From a virus: DNA of 11,070 nt. Numbering within the stretch: position 1 is the stretch's first letter; every line of letters starts with the position of its first letter. The notes under the pieces are model-generated. The model was not told the DNA's origin, ran no database searches, and saw only the letters and a program-made list of their open reading frames with translations. This document shows, piece after piece, positions 34-11,070 of the stretch. The stretch lies in the UHGV virus genome UHGV-0129235, one strand, 5' to 3'. Position numbers and translations under genes: made by a program.

Positions 34-66
34 ATGGCTAAAGTTCTGGTGCTTTTACATAGCTAA
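34..66 (+). pseudogene. wrbA: Displaced native 5' end of wrbA (RBS + ATG + codons MAKVLVL) running into island DNA and stopping after 10 codons; left half of attB
   Basis: atg gct aaa gtt ctg gtg ctt (34-54) encodes MAKVLVL, which is the N-terminus of enterobacterial WrbA as I recall it; gaggag SD at 18-23; frame then reads LHS-stop in island sequence. The same codons resume at the right edge of the window. Confidence 0.55.
46..60. other. attL junction (host-island crossover region, shared core GTGCTTT at 49-55)
   Basis: ctggtgcttt|tacat: matches wrbA through GTGCTTT then diverges into island sequence; same 7-mer present at right junction 11016-11022. Confidence 0.5.
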
Positions 67-572: not shown

Positions 573-1121
573 ATGGCGGTGATTGGTTATTGCAGGGTAT
601 CAACACAAGACCAGACTGTAGACAACCAGAAACTACAGATAGAGAAGGTTCACAAGGTCGATAAATGGTTTATTGATGAGGCTGTCTCAGGAGCTACAAA
701 GGCCACCAGCAGAGATGGTTTTAGAGACATGATGAACTATGTAAGGTGTGACGATACGTTAGTTGTGGTAGCTATTGACCGTTTAGGGCGTAATACCGTT
801 GATGTGCTCTCTAACGTGGAGTCACTACAGACTAAAGGTGTGAGGGTTGTTTCTCTACGTGAAGGTTTTGACCTGTCTACACCAATCGGTAAAGCAATGC
901 TTACTATGATGGCTGGTTTAGCTGACCTTGAAAAAGACCTTATCAGTGAACGTAGAAAGGCTGGTATTGAACGTGCTAAAGCTGAAGGGGTTCACATGGG
1001 AAGACCTGTAAAAGCTTCTTCAGAGGCTGTACAGATGCTTATTTCACAAGGTAAAACGAGGTTGCAGATTCAGGAAGAGCTAGGAATCTCTAGAGCAACT
1101 TATTACAGACTTGCTAAATAA
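573..1121 (+). CDS. Small serine recombinase, resolvase/DNA-invertase family
   Basis: 182-aa ORF; N-terminal MAVIGYCRVSTQDQ catalytic-serine motif, DRLGR motif, C-terminal HTH (LGISRATYYRLAK); SD aaggggg 4 nt before ATG. Confidence 0.9.
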   Translation: MAVIGYCRVSTQDQTVDNQKLQIEKVHKVDKWFIDEAVSGATKATSRDGFRDMMNYVRCDDTLVVVAIDRLGRNTVDVLSNVESLQTKGVRVVSLREGFDLSTPIGKAMLTMMAGLADLEKDLISERRKAGIERAKAEGVHMGRPVKASSEAVQMLISQGKTRLQIQEELGISRATYYRLAK

Positions 1122-1805: not shown

Positions 1806-2003
1806 GTGTCACATCCAATAATCAATGTCGGTCGTTATCATGGTGGTTCTGATGACTGGCGTACACCGTATCGTTTATTTCGTAACCTACACCGAGAATT
1901 TAGTTTCTCAATGGATGGTGCTGCAACTGAGCATGACGCATTGTTGCCACGGTTCACCGATGATATTCACAATCAATCATGGGTTGGTGAACGGGGTCTG
2001 TAA
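1806..2003 (+). pseudogene. N-terminal fragment of a phage Dam-type DNA N6-adenine methyltransferase (truncated remnant)
   Basis: 65-aa ORF with SDDWRTPYRLFRNLHREFSFSMDGAATEHDALLPRFTDDIHNQSWVGERG, matching the pattern D-x-W-x-TP...LF..L..EF.F..D.AA...NA....F...D.L.Q.W.G that I recall for phage Dam (Pfam Dam family); the expected downstream NPPYS catalytic region is absent in all frames. Confidence 0.4.
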
Positions 2004-2685
2004 AGATTGTTTAAGAAGTCGGTTTAGGGATTGGTAGATGATTCGGATGAAGCATCCTCATAACAATACCAATTAGAAGGTGGCTCTCCCTTTCTGGGGT
2101 TATCGCCTTGTATCTTAGTGAGTCCAGGAAGTTCTCTGTGAAGGGTCTTGTCAGTCCTTTATATTGGGTGATTACAACTTATTGAAAAATAAGAACTTTT
2201 AGAAGTTACTGTCAGATAGGTGAATACTTGATAGATACAGCTTTCTGGTTCTGTCAAGCTATTTTTTAATAGATAGCACAAAATGCTAAAGATACCCCTA
2301 TACCATCTCGTACAGGGGGTTTTGAAGGGAGTTTAACGGGGGTCTGTGTGGTTATCTGTTCTGGTCCTGTCCTTGAGGTCAAACGACCATTCACGACCAA
2401 ACAATCTGAACACGATAAACACTCTGACGATGAAATAGCGAAGTAATAAGCCTGCAATCAGCCCAACACCTCCACCAGCCCATACATCAGGTGACCCCAG
2501 CTCAGGAGGGAGATTTACCATTAAATTTCCTGTGTGCAATGCAATACCATGTGACATACATAGTTGATTCGGTTAGTTGGGCTTGTACCAACCCCTATCG
2601 AATAAACCTCATAGCCACGCCTTTATATTTTCCCTCTCTCATAAAACCATTATACCATAAATGTTAATAAAATGTTAAAAAATGC

Positions 2686-2763: not shown

Positions 2764-3318
2764 ATGAACAACAAAGATTTTCAAAAATTTCTTGAAGAAT
2801 CCAAGAGACGCAACAGACACAACGGTTACAGCCACACAGACACCCCCACCAGCTACGAAGTCCCAACCTTTAGCAAATCCGAACGTAAGAACATTGAAGC
2901 GGTCATTCGTAGTATTACGCCACGAGACAGATTTATGCCAGCACGCAAAGAAAAAGAGAATACTTTAAAAACTTTCTTGATGGGCTTTGATTCTTACGAG
3001 CAATTACCGCCACGAATTGAAGATGTAATTATCGGTACTTGTCGCAGTTTTGGAAGGGATAACTATCACCGGAAAGTTTTCTATTTACTACGAAATCTTG
3101 ACAAAATTAGCTCAAGCACAGTAACAAATTATCTTCAGCGTCAAGCAACCAGGCTTAGCTATGAATTACCAAGCGATAAATATTGCGCTAACTTAGCCAC
3201 TATTTGCATGAAAGTTATTGAGACAATTAATCATCATGCGGAAGTGGGCAATATCAGCCTTACGATTAGTGAACCAGATTTCGAGTTTGACCCGTATTTA
3301 GTTACAGAGGAATTTTAA
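2764..3318 (+). CDS. Hypothetical protein (184 aa), first gene of four-gene operon
   Basis: Intact ORF directly downstream of promoter; abutted by next gene start (TAAATG); no family recognised. Confidence 0.6.
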   Translation: MNNKDFQKFLEESKRRNRHNGYSHTDTPTSYEVPTFSKSERKNIEAVIRSITPRDRFMPARKEKENTLKTFLMGFDSYEQLPPRIEDVIIGTCRSFGRDNYHRKVFYLLRNLDKISSSTVTNYLQRQATRLSYELPSDKYCANLATICMKVIETINHHAEVGNISLTISEPDFEFDPYLVTEEF

Positions 3319-3597
3319 ATGAATAAACACACATTAACCCGTATTTCAGAGGAAGCTTTTAACGGGCTTACCAGAATTAAACAAGCAACTAACTTACCTC
3401 ATCAAACTATTATGCAACTTGCAATTGCTAAAGAGGTCACTGAGTCGGATTTACTTAAATATCCAGTCTCTAAAGGTCGTAAGCACATCCGAATTAGTCA
3501 GGACGCTTTAGATACTTTGAAGGCACTTAACGGCTTTAAAATTGATATTGCCCGTCTATTGAGTCTTAAGATTCACAAGTTAGCGATGGAGGTTTAA
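3319..3597 (+). CDS. Hypothetical small protein (92 aa), possible DNA-binding regulator
   Basis: ORF with SD agagga 9 nt upstream; start abuts upstream stop; function not recognised (regulator assignment is a guess from size and a helix-like segment NLPHQTIMQLAIAKEV). Confidence 0.55.
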   Translation: MNKHTLTRISEEAFNGLTRIKQATNLPHQTIMQLAIAKEVTESDLLKYPVSKGRKHIRISQDALDTLKALNGFKIDIARLLSLKIHKLAMEV

Positions 3598-3812
3598 TGC
3601 TATGCGTTACCTTTGAATACCACACGGATAAAATGATTCGCCACATCTCCGACCTCCTGATTAAGGGAAACGGATTCGGTGACATCCATAACTCAAAAGA
3701 TATTTTCATTAAAGCCATTGGCCCAAATGAAGTACTGAAAACAGCAGTTAAACCGGAATGGTTTGAGCGTCACAAGATTGAATTAGGTTATTGGGGTGAG
3801 GAGGTTTTATGA
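3597..3812 (+). CDS. Hypothetical small protein (71 aa)
   Basis: SD ggagg 6 nt upstream; ATG overlaps upstream stop (TAATG), consistent with translational coupling. Confidence 0.55.
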   Translation: MLCVTFEYHTDKMIRHISDLLIKGNGFGDIHNSKDIFIKAIGPNEVLKTAVKPEWFERHKIELGYWGEEVL

Positions 3813-4096
3813 AACCTTGGCATGAAGATGTTAGACGATATTTTACAGAACACCTTATCTATGATGAATCCAGTGATTCCCTGTGCTGGTCTGATGGAGA
3901 GTCAGTCACGATAAATACCGACGACTACGGCAACAAAACATTTAATATAGGCCGATATACTTTCTACGTGAAATATGTTGTCTGGTTCCTTTATCATGGC
4001 TATCAATCCAACAAGCAAATTATCCATCGAAATGGTAACAGAGCCGATACCAGACCAAAAAATCTTATGCAAGTCCGAGACTTTAAGAGAAATTAG
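3809..4096 (+). CDS. HNH endonuclease-like small protein (95 aa)
   Basis: SD gaggagg 5 nt upstream; ATGA start/stop overlap; C-terminal YHGYQSNKQIIHRNGNRADTRPKNL resembles the HNH_3-type motif (hydrophobic-H-x-N-G-x-x-x-D-x-R-x-x-NL) of phage HNH nucleases. Confidence 0.5.
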   Translation: MKPWHEDVRRYFTEHLIYDESSDSLCWSDGESVTINTDDYGNKTFNIGRYTFYVKYVVWFLYHGYQSNKQIIHRNGNRADTRPKNLMQVRDFKRN

Positions 4097-4250
4097 AAAA
4101 ACAGCTTCTCAGACGCTCTCAATCGCATTCTAACGCAAAAAACTACCTTATTTTAGTGGGTAATACCACTGTACAGGCTACCCCTGAAAAAGACTGTTTA
4201 GCTCGTTACAGAGCGATTGAGGAGGTCTGGTAAAAAGGAGATTTTAAGAA

Positions 4251-4580
4251 ATGAGAGAATTAAACTTCCCACTACAGATTTTTATTGATACCGACACCGC
4301 CATGATGATTCAGGCTTTCGCTGATGTAGGTGTTAGCATTGACTTTGATAAGTTGTTAGAGTTAATGACTGATAATGCGGAAAGCATCTCTGACTTTATT
4401 CAGTCGGTGGAGTTTAACGAGCCTCGAATGATGCTACCAATTAAAGACAGCAACATGAAAAGATTGGTTATCGAGCAAACGAACAAATTCAGCGTTAGCC
4501 CTGAAAGATATCTCAAGGCAGCTATAGCAATTTTGTACGCTGACAATATTTTGGTGACGGATTCGAAGGTGGTGCATTAA
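4251..4580 (+). CDS. Hypothetical acidic protein (109 aa)
   Basis: ORF with SD aaggag 10 nt upstream; net acidic composition; no family recognised. Confidence 0.6.
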   Translation: MRELNFPLQIFIDTDTAMMIQAFADVGVSIDFDKLLELMTDNAESISDFIQSVEFNEPRMMLPIKDSNMKRLVIEQTNKFSVSPERYLKAAIAILYADNILVTDSKVVH

Positions 4581-4669: not shown

Positions 4670-4698
4670 TTGACAAATAACCTTGAGCATGACATAAT
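4670..4698 (+). promoter_or_regulatory. Sigma70-like promoter (TTGACA-17 bp-CATAAT) sharing the ATTGTATATAT motif with promoter at 2686
   Basis: -35 TTGACA 4670-4675, 17-bp spacer, -10 CATAAT 4693-4698, immediately followed by TTGTATATAT. Confidence 0.5.
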
Positions 4699-4901
4699 TG
4701 TATATATGAGGATAGTCTTCTATCCGAAGTCTATAGGGAGAGCAATTCTCCTTGAATTAAAATATTAATCATCTCTACATCGATGATAACTATATTCTGA
4801 TTGGAAAGGTGCAATGCTTTTCGTCATGGCCTTTCAGTTCGGTCTGAGAGGTCATCTCGAAAAGTGCTTAATCATTCATTCATTGAACCCTTTACAGCTT
4901 T

Positions 4902-4930
4902 GCCCTAATCATGAGTTAGGGCTTTCTTTA
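4902..4930 (+). terminator. Terminator-like hairpin (GCCCTAA-7 nt loop-TTAGGGC + TTTCTTT)
   Basis: 7-bp perfect stem with U-rich tail; lies in the leader between promoter 4670 and gene 5145. Confidence 0.4.
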
Positions 4931-4998
4931 AGAGTTTTTAAACAGAGCTTTTAAAGAAAGTTTTTCCTGAAACTTCGTTAACGTTAAAGCAAACCTTC

Positions 4999-5034
4999 AA
5001 AGCCCTTCACAGATTATGTTTAGGGCTTTTTTCA
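4999..5034 (+). terminator. Terminator-like hairpin (AAGCCCT-15 nt loop-AGGGCTT + TTTTT)
   Basis: 7-8 bp stem followed by T-run; sequence-related to hairpin at 4902 (both contain TAGGGCTTT and a downstream AGCTTTTAAA). Confidence 0.45.
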
Positions 5035-5144
5035 GCTTTTAAAAAGCATACTTGGCAAACCACCTTTTAAGTCTCTTCTAAGTTTAGATAGGCTGTCAGG
5101 TGTGCTTTTTAAAAACTGAATATTACTTAGAAGAGGAAAATGAA

Positions 5145-5852
5145 ATGGAAAATCTATATATTAGCGGTAGAAAGGTTGATAGCTTCGGTGACTGGTCGCC
5201 ACAGACTGAACATCCAGCTATCACTATTCAGCGTAAAGAACACGATGAAAGAATTAAGCTTGAGCAATCGTTAAAGATGTCACCAAAGGTAATTTCCTTT
5301 GTGTCTCCTGAGCCTCAAGAAATGCCAGATATCTGCAAAAGTGAAGCACTATTTAATCTTGAGCGTGAATATTACCCACAGTTAAAAGCACAGCGTATTA
5401 AACTTGATGACGCTTACAGCAAAGTTACCCTGATGCAATCAGCTATTGAGCCGTCAGAATTTGAGATTCAGGATGAATTGTCACAGAAGCCGTATGTTTA
5501 CTTCACATACGAAGATAATGATGGTTTTGGTACTTTTCAAGAAAACGTCACAGACGTGATTAGTAGTCTTCCTGCTGGACATCGAATTGTGAAGATGGTT
5601 AAAGCTTCAAGAGGTGCTGGTCAGTTTATTTACATGACTAATAAGAGCGATGAAGAACTCTGTGAACTTGCCAGACAGAACATCTTGGCATCACGTAACA
5701 AGCAACTTGAAAATGTTAAGTTGTATCTCTCAAGAGAGCTTCAGGCTATGAAAGAGCTTGTGAAAGAATATGAAGATGCTAAGAAGATTGCTATGCAGGC
5801 TGATATTGAGCAGCTTACGAAGATTTCTCAGAAATATGCAAAGGCTATTTGA
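5145..5852 (+). CDS. Hypothetical protein (235 aa; C-terminal coiled-coil-like region)
   Basis: ORF; preferred start ATG 5145 (MENLYISG) with SD gaagagga upstream, rather than GTG 5100 of the ORF track; no family recognised. Confidence 0.6.
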   Translation: MENLYISGRKVDSFGDWSPQTEHPAITIQRKEHDERIKLEQSLKMSPKVISFVSPEPQEMPDICKSEALFNLEREYYPQLKAQRIKLDDAYSKVTLMQSAIEPSEFEIQDELSQKPYVYFTYEDNDGFGTFQENVTDVISSLPAGHRIVKMVKASRGAGQFIYMTNKSDEELCELARQNILASRNKQLENVKLYLSRELQAMKELVKEYEDAKKIAMQADIEQLTKISQKYAKAI

Positions 5853-5870
5853 TATGGTGTGAGGTGATGA

Positions 5871-6080
5871 ATGATTGAAGAACGTTTAGAGACTATTCGG
5901 TCTGTTTGTGAAAACTTAAAGTTACAAACTAAGCCAGCCTTAAGAATTAAAACCAAACATCAAATTATCACCTCACGCAAACCAAAAACACGCAAGATTC
6001 CAAAGTGGTGTATCGACCGTATCCCTTCCGATGCTCAAATTATAGGTGAAACGGAACTACATTATCTTGTCAGGCATTAA
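5871..6080 (+). CDS. Hypothetical small basic protein (69 aa)
   Basis: ORF with SD gaggtga just upstream; Lys/Arg-rich (RKPKTRKIPK); followed by terminator. Confidence 0.5.
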   Translation: MIEERLETIRSVCENLKLQTKPALRIKTKHQIITSRKPKTRKIPKWCIDRIPSDAQIIGETELHYLVRH

Positions 6081-6102: not shown

Positions 6103-6142
6103 GGGGAGAGATTAACCTTAATTGGTTGGTCCTCCCCTTTTT
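6103..6142 (+). terminator. Rho-independent terminator candidate (GGGGAG...CTCCCC + TTTTT)
   Basis: GC-rich 6-bp stem with structured loop and 5-T tail, right after the 69-aa gene stop. Confidence 0.5.
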
Positions 6143-6177
6143 CGTATATGAACACTTAAAGAGGTGAAATATGAACA

Positions 6178-8355
6178 ATGGCACAGTTTAAAGTTGATAG
6201 TTTTATCGTTGAGCTAGGCTTCAGCGAGAACGTTATTAAGGGCTTGCAAAGAGTTGAAAAGGCAGCTTTGCAGTCAGCACAAAGAATTGAACGTAATTTG
6301 AATAGAGCGTTTAAGGTCGATACCAAGCAACTTGACAGCAATCTGACAAGTTCTTTAGGGCAACTTGAAAGGAAGTTTAATAAGACCTTTGACAAGATTG
6401 AACAGAGAGCAAGAAACACAAAAGTTTTCCGTTTCACAAGTCAGGTTAATGACGCTATTAATCCTCCAAAACAACCAAGACAGCCACGAATTAGCGGAAA
6501 CAGAGCAATCACAGCAGCTTATTCAGCGAATATGAGCAAGCTAAAAGGCTTTGACCCTATTTTGCAGAAATACATCAAATCTCAGTTTTACGGGCTATCT
6601 GCTAAAGCTGGGTCAATGGATAATTCAAAATTCAATGAGAAGCTGGCTCAGTTAAACACTTCAGTCAGAGAAGCAATTGCTAAAGCCAGAGGTCATACAT
6701 CCACCAGCATTAACAATACAAGCGACGCATTTAATAATCTTGCAAGCAATGCGATTAAATTATCTGGTGCATTTTACTCTGTGATGGGTGCTCTTAACGC
6801 TTACAAGGCCATTATGAATGCAGGTCTTAAACGAGATTCCGCACAGAGAGCCGCTAAGTTTGTACTTGGTGATAAAGCATCTGAGGCTGAAACATTTATC
6901 AGGGGACTGGCTGACAAGACAGGTCTTAATATCTCTGAAGGGCTATCAAGCTACGCTAAGTTTGCAGCAGGTGCTCAGGGTTCTATGTCACAGGAACAGA
7001 CACAGGAGCTATTTGGTAATGCAACGGCTATGAGTCGCTTAATGGGGCTTTCTAACGACGAGCTAAACGGCATTTTGAAAGCTTTTGAGCAGATGGCGAG
7101 CAAGGGCAAGATTCAGGCTGAAGAGCTTCGTGGTCAGTTAGGTGACCGTATGGCTGGTGCATTTAAACTATTCGCTGAAGCATTGGGTATGACTGCTACA
7201 GAGCTTGATAAAGCGATGAAAGACGGGAAGATTTTAAGTAGTGATACTCTCCCTAAAGTCGCTAAACAGATGGGCTTGATGATTGATAAAGCGGGTGGCT
7301 GGGCTGAAGTCGCTAAGAGCACTCAGACAGCTTTAGGGAAACTGGCTAACAACAGGGATGATACGATGGTGAAAATCTTCTCAGGTTCACAGGATGAGCT
7401 AAATGGCTTCTTATCCAGTCTGAGTAGCCTGCTTAGTGAAATGGGGATGAGTTCTTCTATCGCTGGTGATGCTATCGGTGGACTTATCGACATGCTTAAA
7501 GCTGGTGTAGATGATATTCGCGTATTCAATAACACCATGGAAGGCTGGATTTTACAGACTAAGAAGTTCTATTACAGCCTTGATGACACTAAACGAAAAC
7601 TACTTGATGAAGTCGGTGATGGTTTTATCAATTTTGTCAAAGGTCTTGCTATAGCGTTATCTGCAAAGACGCTATTCAGTGCTACTACAGGGGTTATGAA
7701 CCTGACAAGAGCAATCACAACGTTAGGTACAAGAGCTAATCAGGTGGCTGGTCAGGTAGCTACTGGTAAAGGTGGTGGAAAACTGAAAGGTGTAGCTGGT
7801 GGTGTAGGTAGTGCTCTTGCAATTGGTTATGCTGATGACGGTTATGAAACAGCGTTAGCATTAGCTTCAATGATTCCACAAATCAGAGGTGTCACTCTTG
7901 GTTTATATGCATTGAAGAAAGCACTGGATTTTATGAATCAGGAAGTAGTCAAAAACGCTAATATGCATCCATCTGGGGTAGGTGTGGGTAGTGACTTTAA
8001 TCCTGTGTATTCTGGTGACCCTAATAAACCGAATGTGATTAACGAAGGATGGAGTAGAATTTTTAGTTCAATGGGTGAATTGTTTAACAATGCCACAATG
8101 AATATTGCAAGATTCAATCATCCAGAATTGATTACCATGAAACAAGATGCATCATTAACGAGCACTGACATCCAAAATCTAAGAGATGAAATTAGTGCTT
8201 TGAGTAAACGTATTCAGGAGCCAGTGAAAGTTTCACTTGGTGGTGAAGTTGCCATTAAACCAGATGAAACCAGCTTTATGACCTTTAGCAGTAATATCTA
8301 CGACCAATATGCAGAAGCTACGTTATTAAGTTCATCATTCCCAGAAGATGATTGA
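6178..8355 (+). CDS. Tail tape measure protein-like (725 aa)
   Basis: Internal segment GLSNDELNGILKAFEQMASKGKIQAEELRGQLGDRMAGAFKLFAEALGMTATELDKAMKDGKILSSDTLPKVAKQMG matches the conserved tape-measure domain as I recall it; coiled-coil-rich N-terminal third; Gly-rich hydrophobic C-terminal segment; SD agaggtg 9 nt upstream. Confidence 0.75.
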   Translation: MAQFKVDSFIVELGFSENVIKGLQRVEKAALQSAQRIERNLNRAFKVDTKQLDSNLTSSLGQLERKFNKTFDKIEQRARNTKVFRFTSQVNDAINPPKQPRQPRISGNRAITAAYSANMSKLKGFDPILQKYIKSQFYGLSAKAGSMDNSKFNEKLAQLNTSVREAIAKARGHTSTSINNTSDAFNNLASNAIKLSGAFYSVMGALNAYKAIMNAGLKRDSAQRAAKFVLGDKASEAETFIRGLADKTGLNISEGLSSYAKFAAGAQGSMSQEQTQELFGNATAMSRLMGLSNDELNGILKAFEQMASKGKIQAEELRGQLGDRMAGAFKLFAEALGMTATELDKAMKDGKILSSDTLPKVAKQMGLMIDKAGGWAEVAKSTQTALGKLANNRDDTMVKIFSGSQDELNGFLSSLSSLLSEMGMSSSIAGDAIGGLIDMLKAGVDDIRVFNNTMEGWILQTKKFYYSLDDTKRKLLDEVGDGFINFVKGLAIALSAKTLFSATTGVMNLTRAITTLGTRANQVAGQVATGKGGGKLKGVAGGVGSALAIGYADDGYETALALASMIPQIRGVTLGLYALKKALDFMNQEVVKNANMHPSGVGVGSDFNPVYSGDPNKPNVINEGWSRIFSSMGELFNNATMNIARFNHPELITMKQDASLTSTDIQNLRDEISALSKRIQEPVKVSLGGEVAIKPDETSFMTFSSNIYDQYAEATLLSSSFPEDD

Positions 8356-8367
8356 TTTAACGGTGTT

Positions 8368-8493
8368 CTACGTGAATAAAGCAAAGTTAATACCCACACC
8401 AAAAATTATTTTTCACGTAGCTCACGCTTAACAGAGAAAATACTTATATATCAAAGGCTTGGTTAAAAATGATTAAAATACACTAAGCCTTTG
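8368..8493. repeat. Two perfect 9-bp inverted repeats with long spacers (CTACGTGAA/TTCACGTAG and CAAAGGCTT/AAGCCTTTG) in the intergenic region between the tape measure and the next gene
   Basis: 8368-8376 vs 8412-8420 and 8452-8460 vs 8485-8493; the second right arm ends 7 nt before the SD of the downstream gene. Confidence 0.4.
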
Positions 8494-8511
8494 AAATCAA
8501 AGGAGAATTTA

Positions 8512-9300
8512 ATGATTTACTCTAATCAGATTCGTTACAGTGGCAAAGATGGTATCTATTTCCACTTAAGAGATAATGTAGATGCCTTCTTAACCTTATC
8601 AGCTACTGAACAGATGGAGTTTGACAGCCCTATGCAGGTGACTACACAGAACATGCAATCAGGGCAAACCGTCACAGATAATGTGCAAAGAGCACCCAGA
8701 ACAATCACTATTAGTGGTGTCGTTGTAGTTGGTTATGAAGGAAGTTTATTACTAACTCGTCAGGGTCAATTAGTAGAAAACTTCATCGACACTCTGGAAA
8801 ACTGGCGTGACCAGAAGCAGATTATTTCGGTCATCTGTAAAGACGGTATCAAGATTGATGATTCCATTATTACGAGCTTTAAAGCCTCTAAAGATGTTAC
8901 TATCTCTAACGGTCTTCGTATCCAGCTAACTTTTCAGGAAATTAACTTTAAAGCTATTGTTGGTCAGACTGATATTTCTGCTGCGACTGGAAAGGCCGCT
9001 ACTACAAATGACGGTGGTGTGACCAGTAAGAAGAATGCAGGTAACGTGACCACTGAACGCAATAACGCGCCTATGCTATCGTGCAAAGAGCTAATGAGTA
9101 TTAACGATGTATCCGGTTACGCTCCAGCTATCAGAAATGATATTCTCGATGCTCAGATTAAATGCAATAAGGCTTGGAAGCTGGACTATTCAGACTTAAC
9201 AGAAGCTGAAAAAACCAACGTCACCAATGCTAACAGTAACGCTGGTCGGGTAGCTTCAAAGCTTAAAAAGTACTCAGTGAACCCTCACAAAAAATACTAA
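8512..9300 (+). CDS. Hypothetical protein (262 aa), possibly a minor/distal tail protein
   Basis: ORF with SD aaggag 6 nt before ATG 8512 (preferred over TTG 8491); position immediately after the tape measure and a weak pattern resemblance to small minor-tail proteins; function low confidence. Confidence 0.55.
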
Positions 9301-10991: not shown

Positions 10992-11070
10992 ATGAGTGTT
11001 AAGGCAAGAATACTAGTGCTTTATTATTCCATGTACGGACATATTGAAACGATGGCACGCGCAGTCGCTG
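10992..11070 (+). CDS. wrbA: WrbA NAD(P)H:quinone oxidoreductase, island-regenerated hybrid 5' end (partial, runs off window)
   Basis: [26 protein letters not shown]; from LVLYYS onward this equals the WrbA N-terminus as I recall it; SD aggag 10 nt upstream is supplied by the island. Confidence 0.85.
11013..11027. other. attR junction (island-host crossover region, shared core GTGCTTT at 11016-11022)
   Basis: ctagtgctttattat: island sequence up to the core, then wrbA codons YYSMYGH continue. Confidence 0.5.

Follow-up and report, generated by a model that had tools for sequence, protein, structure and literature searches.

The window analysed here, the stretch UHGV-0129235 with its full length of 11,070 nt, contains an integrated island with neighbouring genes for two phage tail proteins, a tape measure protein (TMP) and a tail tube initiator (TI). 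The window represents chromosomal DNA of Escherichia coli and was 99.7% identical to strain cM8a. Its flanks (1-55 and 11016-11070) were contiguous in empty wrbA sites. The island comprises 10,967 bp, is bounded by the 7-nt core GTGCTTT and lies inside the first codons at the 5' end of wrbA. In cM8a, wrbA is annotated as a gene of 606 nt that starts at the ATG at 10992, and the N-terminus supplied by the island replaces MAKVLVLYYS at the start of the wrbA product. No tRNA gene was present in the window. The features are listed in Table 1.

The order of a 725-aa open reading frame (ORF), a 262-aa ORF and a convergent integrase gene was as described, with correct coordinates and lengths, in the sequence-only reading of this DNA, a note made by a model without database searches. 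The stop codons of the TI gene and the integrase gene overlap by 4 nt. The integrase belongs to the large serine recombinases and not to the tyrosine recombinases; this is also the class of the PLE integrase. When 12 ORFs were scanned against Pfam, PHROGs and NCBIfam, TMP and TI were the only virion genes. The other ORFs of the window matched no capsid, portal, terminase, tube, sheath, fibre or lysis family, and the sequence-only reading was right that the ~11-kb island has no further virion gene. The set required for autonomous virion production is thus incomplete. The island shows two of the general features of a satellite, namely its own integrase and att sites together with a missing gene set for virions of its own.

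Table 1. Features of the window, with the evidence for each assignment
Feature	Position	Strand	Basis
attL core GTGCTTT, inside the wrbA 5' end (original wrbA ATG at 34-36)	49-55		Sequence reading and empty sites
Small serine recombinase (invertase/resolvase type), 182 aa, variable left arm	573-1121	+	Pfam Resolvase (9e-42) and HTH_7; phrog_125 DNA invertase
Dam-type N6-adenine methyltransferase remnant (pseudogene here)	1806-2003	+	PGAP 'DNA methylase, incomplete' in cM8a
o184 and o92, opening genes of the rightward operon	2764-3597	+	Slot comparison across the family
o71, HNH endonuclease (3809-4096) and o109, conserved core	3597-4580	+	Pfam HNH_3 (1.8e-8); gene order kept across loci
Near-consensus sigma-70 promoter (4670-4698) and, 3' of it, a strongly structured non-coding region containing two terminator-like hairpins	4670-5035	+	11 of 12 consensus positions plus TG
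o250 (235 aa, ATG at 5145; 5145-5852) and o69, conserved, directly 5' of TMP	5145-6080	+	Conserved gene order
Intrinsic-terminator-like hairpin with U-run, 28 nt 5' of the TMP start	6103-6145	+	-23.7 kcal/mol, z = -4.9
TMP, 725 aa	6178-8355	+	PF20155, TIGR02675, phrog_4036, PDB 9NDY chain F
Intergenic element: hairpin CTACGTGAA...TTCACGTAG, then near-invariant CTCACGCTTAACAGA	8368-8435	+	Fold z = -4.3; conserved
TI (Dit-like), 262 aa: tube-like N-domain and C-terminal extension spanning the baseplate	8512-9300	+	PF21821, PDB 9NDY chain A
Large serine recombinase (integrase), 547 aa	9297-10940	-	Pfam Resolvase, Recombinase and Zn_ribbon_recom; phrog_95 integrase (2e-78)
Substitute wrbA start (ATG at 10992), supplied by the island, and attR core GTGCTTT (11016-11022)	10992-11022	+	Sequence reading

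The two tail proteins and their counterparts in Ounavirinae

The 725-aa protein matched the Pfam family TMP_3 (PF20155; 2e-19, 70.4 bits, cut-off 41), TIGR02675 (55.6 bits, cut-off 21.35) and phrog_4036, 'tail length tape measure protein' (6e-94). These profile matches confirmed its earlier assignment as TMP. It also matched chain F of PDB 9NDY, the 'Tape measure protein' gp017 of phage Bas63 (2.7e-72), and the TMPs of 8VJH, 9ZD7 and 9CUY. The closest TMPs in 50,697 phage records all came from Ounavirinae, and none was more than 60% identical. Overall identity to the Ounavirinae TMPs was 32-35%, with 30-35% in the body of the protein. The parts conserved with the phages were residues 1-45 (~80%), the TMP_3 core (301-360) and the C-terminal motif LLSSSFPEDD, which reads LLSSSYPEEE in the phages. 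In Bas63, the modelled C-terminus of TMP is in contact with hub and puncturing apparatus, on which it docks by its last 25 residues (PMC12609058). At the level of DNA, only two short stretches of the gene, 76-78% identical, aligned to Felixounaviruses. The TMPs of the islands of this family (680-727 aa, 725 aa in the window) were always shorter than those of the phages (735-747 aa).

The TI gene starts at the ATG at 8512, preceded by the ribosome-binding site AAAGGAG, which results in 262 aa; the ORF list uses a TTG at 8491 and gives 269 aa. The sequence-only reading had proposed to compare the 262-aa protein with Dit and lambda gpM-like folds, and the protein matched Dit_like (PF21821; 3e-20, 73 bits, cut-off 24.2). 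TI further matched phrog_3721 (3e-129) and, over residues 5-261, chain A of PDB 9NDY, the 'Tube initiator protein (gp018)' of Bas63 (3e-112). The Bas63 tube initiator is a hexamer with the fold of a tube protein. It serves as the adapter between the threefold hub and the sixfold tube, and its C-terminal extension of ~100 residues traverses the baseplate (PMC12609058). Together, TMP and TI occupy the middle of the baseplate hub, and they nucleate and template the tail tube.

The DNA of the TI N-domain (8536-9045) aligned with 90-92% identity to over 200 Felixounavirus genomes, and in residues 5-185 the protein shared ~95% identity with its phage counterpart. The C-terminal ~75 residues had diverged but could still be aligned, with two cysteines and the terminal SVNPNKK motif retained. 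This C-terminal part had the signature PML.C(K/Q)EL in all islands versus GKLNCQLL in the phages. The N-domains of other island variants were nearest to Mooglevirus and Suspvirus.

Synonymous divergence (dS) of the TI N-domain from Felixounaviruses was 0.36-0.49, near the spread among the phages themselves (0.25), versus more than 2.4 for TMP. The N-domain must therefore have been exchanged recently with a Felixounavirus, whereas TMP is an old lineage of its own. The ratio of nonsynonymous to synonymous divergence (dN/dS) between islands was 0.06-0.15 for TI and 0.10-0.33 for TMP, in both cases in the same range as between phages. Values of 0.06-0.33 show purifying selection on both genes. TMP identity was 42-97% between islands and 79-92% between phages.

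TMP and TI genes are adjacent and in the same order in the phages garuso, Felix O1, phiWec177 and Silverhawkium (Mooglevirus). In these four genomes the two genes abut within a full structural block and follow two tape-measure chaperone genes. The phages are virulent, have genomes of ~86 kb and no annotated integrase. Searched in all six frames, the complete garuso genome contained homologues of only two island genes, TMP and TI.

The surroundings of the two genes in the island showed conserved elements. The terminator-like hairpin 5' of TMP was kept in 10/10 family members, with variable sequence of stem and loop, and the layout for attenuated expression seen in the tail core of the phage seems to be preserved in the island. 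The spacer between TMP and TI comprises 157 nt and is structured and conserved. Its intergenic element was present in 9/9 variants; neither the arms of the hairpin nor the core ACGCTTAACAGA of the 21-nt motif varied among them, and in one variant the motif had CTAAC for CTCAC. Three islands (L005, L007, L018) had a second copy between the terminator and the TMP start. The element looks like a portable control cassette for tail genes. Since the terminator and the conserved structured spacer precede them, TMP and TI look individually gated. The intergenic motif was absent from garuso, where TMP and TI abut, and a comparison search revealed no promoter or packaging motif common to the island and garuso. 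The garuso record has a similar terminator, GGGGGAGAC...GTCTTCCCC-T6, at 76310-76345 between the tube gene and the chaperone-TMP genes.

Distribution, diversity and excision of the island family

The pair of TMP and TI was present in 487 of 5,426 complete E. coli genomes (~9%) and was always chromosomal. We inspected 11 loci in detail. All shared the core order o184-o92-o71-(HNH)-o109, a spacer of ~500 nt, o250-o69-TMP-TI and the convergent serine recombinase. The left arm was variable and could harbor an invertase gene, a gene for a Dam methylase or an AP2/HNH protein, or genes of unknown function. With sizes of 10-14 kb, the elements were integrated at four different places: at wrbA (5' end), yecE, tonB (start codon) or mdtG. 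The TMP/TI pair was intact in nine of the 11 loci and disrupted by insertion sequences (IS) in two. An assignment of the yecE island of O157 to SpLE2 of strain Sakai was not supported, as SpLE2 is listed at sbcB.

The exact integrase protein of the window occurred in 334 blocks of a public collection. The sequence-only reading had proposed to check whether homologues of integrase and TMP reside in full-size prophages or always in ~11-kb islands. All ten loci shown with the identical integrase (L039-L048) were islands of ~11-12 kb at wrbA, and no full-size relative was found. In these ten loci, the identical 547-aa integrase was combined with TMPs of 680, 682, 709, 719, 725 or 726 aa, with TIs of 257 or 262 aa and with two unrelated modules in the o184 slot. 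That one integrase occurs with six length classes of TMP and two classes of TI implies that islands sharing an att site often recombine. The nearest integrase in any of the 50,697 phage records was 28.7% identical. The 12.7-kb 'Bacteriophage sp.' record MT836130, which has a recombinase of 26% identity, was rejected as unrelated.

Core proteins with at least 85% identity were named from Shigella, E. fergusonii, Salmonella enterica and Citrobacter portucalensis. When one genome per species was scanned, patterns derived from o250 were found only in E. albertii and one cryptic Escherichia species, and TI patterns gave no match. Shigella, E. fergusonii, E. albertii, Salmonella and Citrobacter, which have core proteins of the island, are all hosts of Ounavirinae.

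Members of the family excise precisely to an 11-kb circle. The metagenome contig L033 from ENA (ERZ27241592, 11,141 bp) has an exact terminal overlap of 126 bp, which results in a circle of 11,015 bp. Its gene order is circularly permuted, with the TI 3' end followed by the recombinase, the junction, the invertase, the core genes, TMP and the TI 5' end. The junction consists of the island side of attR, the 13-nt core CAATGACCCTTGA and the island side of attL, as in integrated copies. This core is the start of tonB and contains the tonB ATG. The same junction was found with 100% identity over 400 nt in the unrelated Logan assembly SRR13378612. L033 is a tonB-type relative; over the left arm and the early operon it shared 92-93% identity with the window. 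In wrbA (34-55 and 10992-11022) and tonB (L033 2009-2021), the recombinases of the family act on the first codons of the host gene, and the island gives a replacement start codon and N-terminus.

These data bear on the view that the island is a decayed prophage and a plain deletion derivative, which the sequence-only reading had listed as the last remains of a siphovirus-type prophage. Such an origin would fit the presence of only 2 of ~25 virion genes, the methylase pseudogene in the window copy and the IS insertions in TMP or TI of some relatives. Nevertheless, we consider it highly improbable. The phages with homologous genes are virulent 86-kb myoviruses with contractile tails and without an annotated integrase, and the phage records contain no integrase with more than 29% and no TMP with more than 60% identity. 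With its compact gene set and sharp ends, the island is conserved as a unit of 10-14 kb at four or more att sites. Precise excision, dN/dS values of 0.06-0.33 and the failure to find a full-size relative also speak against decay. This alternative of the sequence-only reading, against which the reading had itself argued, is not supported.

A putative satellite of Felix O1-like phages

We favor, with moderate confidence, the reading that the island is a PLE-like satellite of virulent Ounavirinae, which puts its own TMP and TI into the baseplates of the helper and in this way produces chimeric tails. Our confidence is much higher for the components of this reading, namely that the TMP and TI genes are real and under selection and that the islands form a mobile family and are not products of prophage decay. 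For the window allele, the sequence relationships suggest a Felix O1-like Felixounavirus as the likely helper.

By analogy, the mechanism would most likely be the one shown experimentally for PLE and ICP1. PLE makes chimeric tails with its own TMP, tail assembly chaperone and baseplate hub protein; PLE11 virions hold the PLE TMP and hub protein instead of those of ICP1, and the PLE protein Rta blocks the ICP1 TMP (PMC11838301). In our model, infection by the helper would lead to excision of the island, followed by replication via the o184/o92 slot, which holds a recognisable replication initiator in other variants. TMP and TI would be expressed from behind the conserved terminator and the hairpin element, and a helper function presumably opens this gate. 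They would replace gp17 and gp18 of the helper, while the rest of the baseplate would be built by the helper. The chimeric tails would then bring island DNA into new cells. This DNA would probably be present as concatemers in heads of helper size, which is the simplest assumption because no gene for capsid size or remodelling is visible. Because no tail assembly chaperone was recognisable in the island, its TMP would need the chaperone of the helper. Tail assembly of the helper may be impaired at the same time. The helper-like surfaces, comprising the tube-like domain of TI and the N-terminus and C-terminal docking motif of TMP, are precisely the parts expected to contact hub, tube and chaperones of the helper. 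The TMP body and the baseplate-spanning extension of TI are specific to the island.

The island and PLE have many features in common. Both are small islands, with ~1/7-1/8 of the size of the helper genome, use a large serine recombinase and have a (presumed) virulent helper with a contractile tail. Both encode their own TMP and a protein of the baseplate core and lack the rest of the tail module, and their TMP alleles fall into divergent groups. In contrast to PLE, which resides in Vibrio cholerae and exploits ICP1, the island is hosted by Escherichia and its homologous genes come from Ounavirinae. No homologue of RepA_N, TcaP or the tail assembly chaperone was detected in the island, a distinction that relies on published descriptions of PLE. 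The second protein of the island is a tube initiator with an N-domain ~95% identical to the helper, whereas the hub protein of PLE is 41% identical. The island TMP has nearly the length of the helper TMP, and the island is known here from sequence and PLE by experiment.

The sequence-only reading started from the premise that satellite families with a TMP of their own are not known. This premise is outdated: apart from PLE (PMC11838301), E. coli satellites (PMC10055350) and the EPIPs (10.64898/2025.12.02.691453) do so. The E. coli satellites of Stephanstirmvirinae/Justusliebigvirus-type phages carry genes for capsid, decoration, TMP and baseplate hub (Barth et al. 2023, PMC10055350). Like the island studied here, they are E. 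coli islands with att sites that contain TMP and a baseplate-hub gene without the rest of the tail and that swap replicon modules, and one subset has a serine recombinase. They differ, as far as their descriptions were compared, in having major capsid and decoration genes, a RepA_N initiator and mostly a tyrosine integrase at tRNA genes, none of which is present in the island. Moreover, TMP and TI of the island match Ounavirinae, and phages of Stephanstirmvirinae size are ~25% identical over the TMP core.

The EPIPs of Mycolicibacterium (bioRxiv 10.64898/2025.12.02.691453) likewise have a serine integrase and their own TMP. Unlike the island, they also carry a small terminase, head-tail connectors, scaffold and capsid protein, depend on a prophage helper and have tails much longer than those of the helper. 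PICMI are minimalist satellites of virulent vibriophages that are packaged as a concatemer (PMC10803314). They resemble the island in their very small size, the virulent helper and the lack of capsid-remodelling genes, and a concatemer is plausible for an 11-kb element in an 86-kb head. PICMI have no virion genes and a tyrosine integrase, and for the island packaging as a concatemer is only inferred. With regard to P4-like elements, PICI and cfPICI, no match to sid/psu/delta, alpA/pri-rep/terS or capsid/portal/protease was found in the island by Pfam and PHROG searches. We concluded that, by their defining features, the island fits none of the PLE, Stephanstirmvirinae-associated, EPIP, P4-like, PICI and cfPICI families.

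Compared with gp17 and gp18 of the Felixounavirus Bas63 (PDB 9NDY, PMC12609058), the island proteins are homologous and encoded in the same order, with the TI N-domain, the N-terminal 45 residues of TMP and its C-terminal docking motif conserved. The phage genes abut in a block of 25 structural genes after two chaperone genes, whereas the island pair stands alone and is separated by its structured spacer. As satellites with their own TMP were already known, the new aspect lies in the family itself, which is minimal, very common in Escherichia and tied to phages of the Felix O1 type and which combines a helper-identical domain in TI with hyper-diverse TMPs. Within the literature covered, no publication joined 'phage satellite' with Felixounavirus, Felix O1 or Ounavirinae.

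Several observations weigh against a satellite of Ounavirinae. The TMP is only ~33% identical to any deposited phage TMP, and the true helper could therefore be an unsampled relative. Apart from TMP and TI, no sequence of the island was common to garuso. The island yielded no packaging signal, no factor for capsid size, no tail assembly chaperone and no helper-sensing regulator that could be recognised, and Ounavirinae showed no anti-satellite nuclease-like gene directed against o184 or the 325-aa protein that takes its place in some variants. Odn-like nucleases sharing a domain with the island initiators were looked for in the phages and none was found. The circle stems from a tonB-type relative and not from the wrbA-type window copy, in which the methylase gene has decayed. 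Matches in IMG/VR are prophage calls from isolate genomes and not virome evidence, and we rejected them as evidence for packaging. Induction, packaging and transfer by a helper are steps that we infer.

The lengths of the TMPs are relevant for the view that the satellite uses its TMP mainly to re-set the tail length of the helper. The island TMPs were always shorter than those of the phages, and the shorter TMP of PLE11 leads to tails that are 10 nm shorter (PMC11838301). The window allele is, however, only 10-22 residues shorter, which at 1.5-1.6 A per residue corresponds to ~1.6-3.5 nm and thus to less than one tube ring. Alleles of 680-726 aa coexist with an identical integrase, so that length is not constant, and most of the divergence is in sequence and not in length. 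We consider a main function in length control quite improbable. The sequence-only reading had combined a satellite that supplies its own TMP with a re-set tail length; the first part is now the best-supported reading, and the second is not supported for the window allele.

A different role of the two genes would be defence alone, with TMP and TI acting as dominant-negative or decoy subunits that poison tail assembly of Ounavirinae, in an island that is not packaged by phages and spreads otherwise. Helper-like interfaces combined with island-specific bodies are the expected look of a poison subunit, the TMP alleles are highly diverse even with one identical integrase, as in an arms race, and tail assembly is a known target of defence (Rta in PLE11, PMC11838301). 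On the other hand, no PADLOC defence model matched, and the island has a circle and a replicon slot but no conjugation or mobilisation gene, leaving the phage particle as the obvious vehicle. Since interference and transfer by chimeric tails coexist in PLE, defence and the satellite reading are not mutually exclusive. Defence as the sole function seems unlikely to us.

The island could also be another kind of integrative element that has co-opted TMP and TI for a role outside the virion, for example as a membrane channel or in the envelope. Co-option was the third alternative of the sequence-only reading. Most genes of the island are without known function, and TMPs have hydrophobic, channel-forming segments. 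Co-option hardly explains, without contact to a phage tail, why exactly the two adjacent and interacting proteins of the tail core were kept, why their hub- and tube-facing parts are phage-like and why one domain was recently exchanged with Felixounaviruses. We regard it as improbable.

The satellite reading can be extended, tentatively and with less confidence than we place in the reading itself. The islands may be unrecognised and very common satellites of virulent Felix O1-like phages, present in ~9% of complete E. coli genomes including O157:H7, that swap the tail core of the helper, and the diversity of TMP may record an arms race at the tape measure. One possibility within this scenario is that an island factor blocks the helper TMP while the own allele is immune, in analogy to Rta in PLE11. 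Another possibility is that TMP decides which cells, or which competitors' particles, can deliver DNA. The terminator and hairpin elements before TMP and TI would then be a helper-sensing switch.

Felix O1-like phages are workhorses of typing, biocontrol and therapy for Salmonella and E. coli. If about one of 11 complete E. coli genomes holds a resident satellite that lives on these phages or blocks them, this would have consequences for host range, efficacy and gene transfer. E. coli would then offer a model of chimeric tail assembly in which TMP and tube initiator are substituted by those of a satellite, as so far shown only for PLE in Vibrio cholerae. The baseplate structure of a candidate helper is solved (Bas63), and satellite-specific surfaces can therefore be mapped directly. 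From the allele diversity of TMP it could be learned, as in a natural experiment, which regions of a tape measure must fit the rest of the tail.

Other genes and elements of the island

The small serine recombinase of the left arm was present, inverted or absent in relatives. Intact Dam genes encoding 220-222 aa occurred in many relatives. In the window copy the accessory arm is decaying, as seen from the methylase fragment (1806-2003), and the core is intact. A conserved ORF of 62 aa with a hydrophobic segment (2333-2521, minus strand) is divergent from the o184 operon in most family members and had no family match. It might encode a small membrane toxin or an exclusion protein or be part of a switch region.

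For o184 and o92, Pfam, PHROGs and NCBIfam gave no family match. The AlphaFold2 model of o184 had a pLDDT of 69 and no fold match in the PDB, and one weak match was to an Aeromonas phage. On these grounds, o184 was rejected as a recognisable replication initiator. In several other variants, the slot of o184 is occupied by a protein of 309-325 aa that matched PHROG families for replication initiation or DnaD-like proteins (2e-8 to 1e-6) and weakly HTH_36; the 325-aa version matched the replication-initiator PHROGs with 2e-8. The exchange of o184 and o92 for this unrelated initiator-like protein and a 96-aa protein was seen in L016 (5611-6878), L018 (6654-7918), L040, L042 and L047, which include islands with identical integrase. 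Judged from this slot comparison, o184 and o92 may constitute a replicon or regulatory module. Module swapping is typical of satellite replicons (PMC10055350), and the exchange in the o184/o92 slot resembles the replicon swaps described for PLE and other satellites.

The promoter downstream of o109 reads TTGACA-17-CATAAT with TG and was invariant in 11 relatives. The stretch of ~330 nt that follows had a fold z of -7.1 and four compensatory stem pairs across the 11 relatives. It matched no Rfam family except for a chance match to bantam. It could be a regulatory RNA, an immunity RNA or an RNA-primed origin.

RefSeq/PGAP name o250 a 'transposase', and its homologues fall into 3,118 clusters at 90% identity. 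Pfam, PHROG, NCBIfam and PADLOC gave no support for a transposase. The AlphaFold2 model (pLDDT 70) consists of long helices, and the best Foldseek match in BFVD had E = 0.03. To judge from this model, the label looks like a propagated annotation error, and the protein would be coiled-coil-like with long helices. We also rejected o250 and o69 as candidates for tail assembly chaperones, since hhalign revealed no similarity to the chaperones of Ounavirinae. The HNH endonuclease of the early operon (95 aa), which is missing in L012, L017 and L041, among others, resembles a free-standing homing endonuclease.

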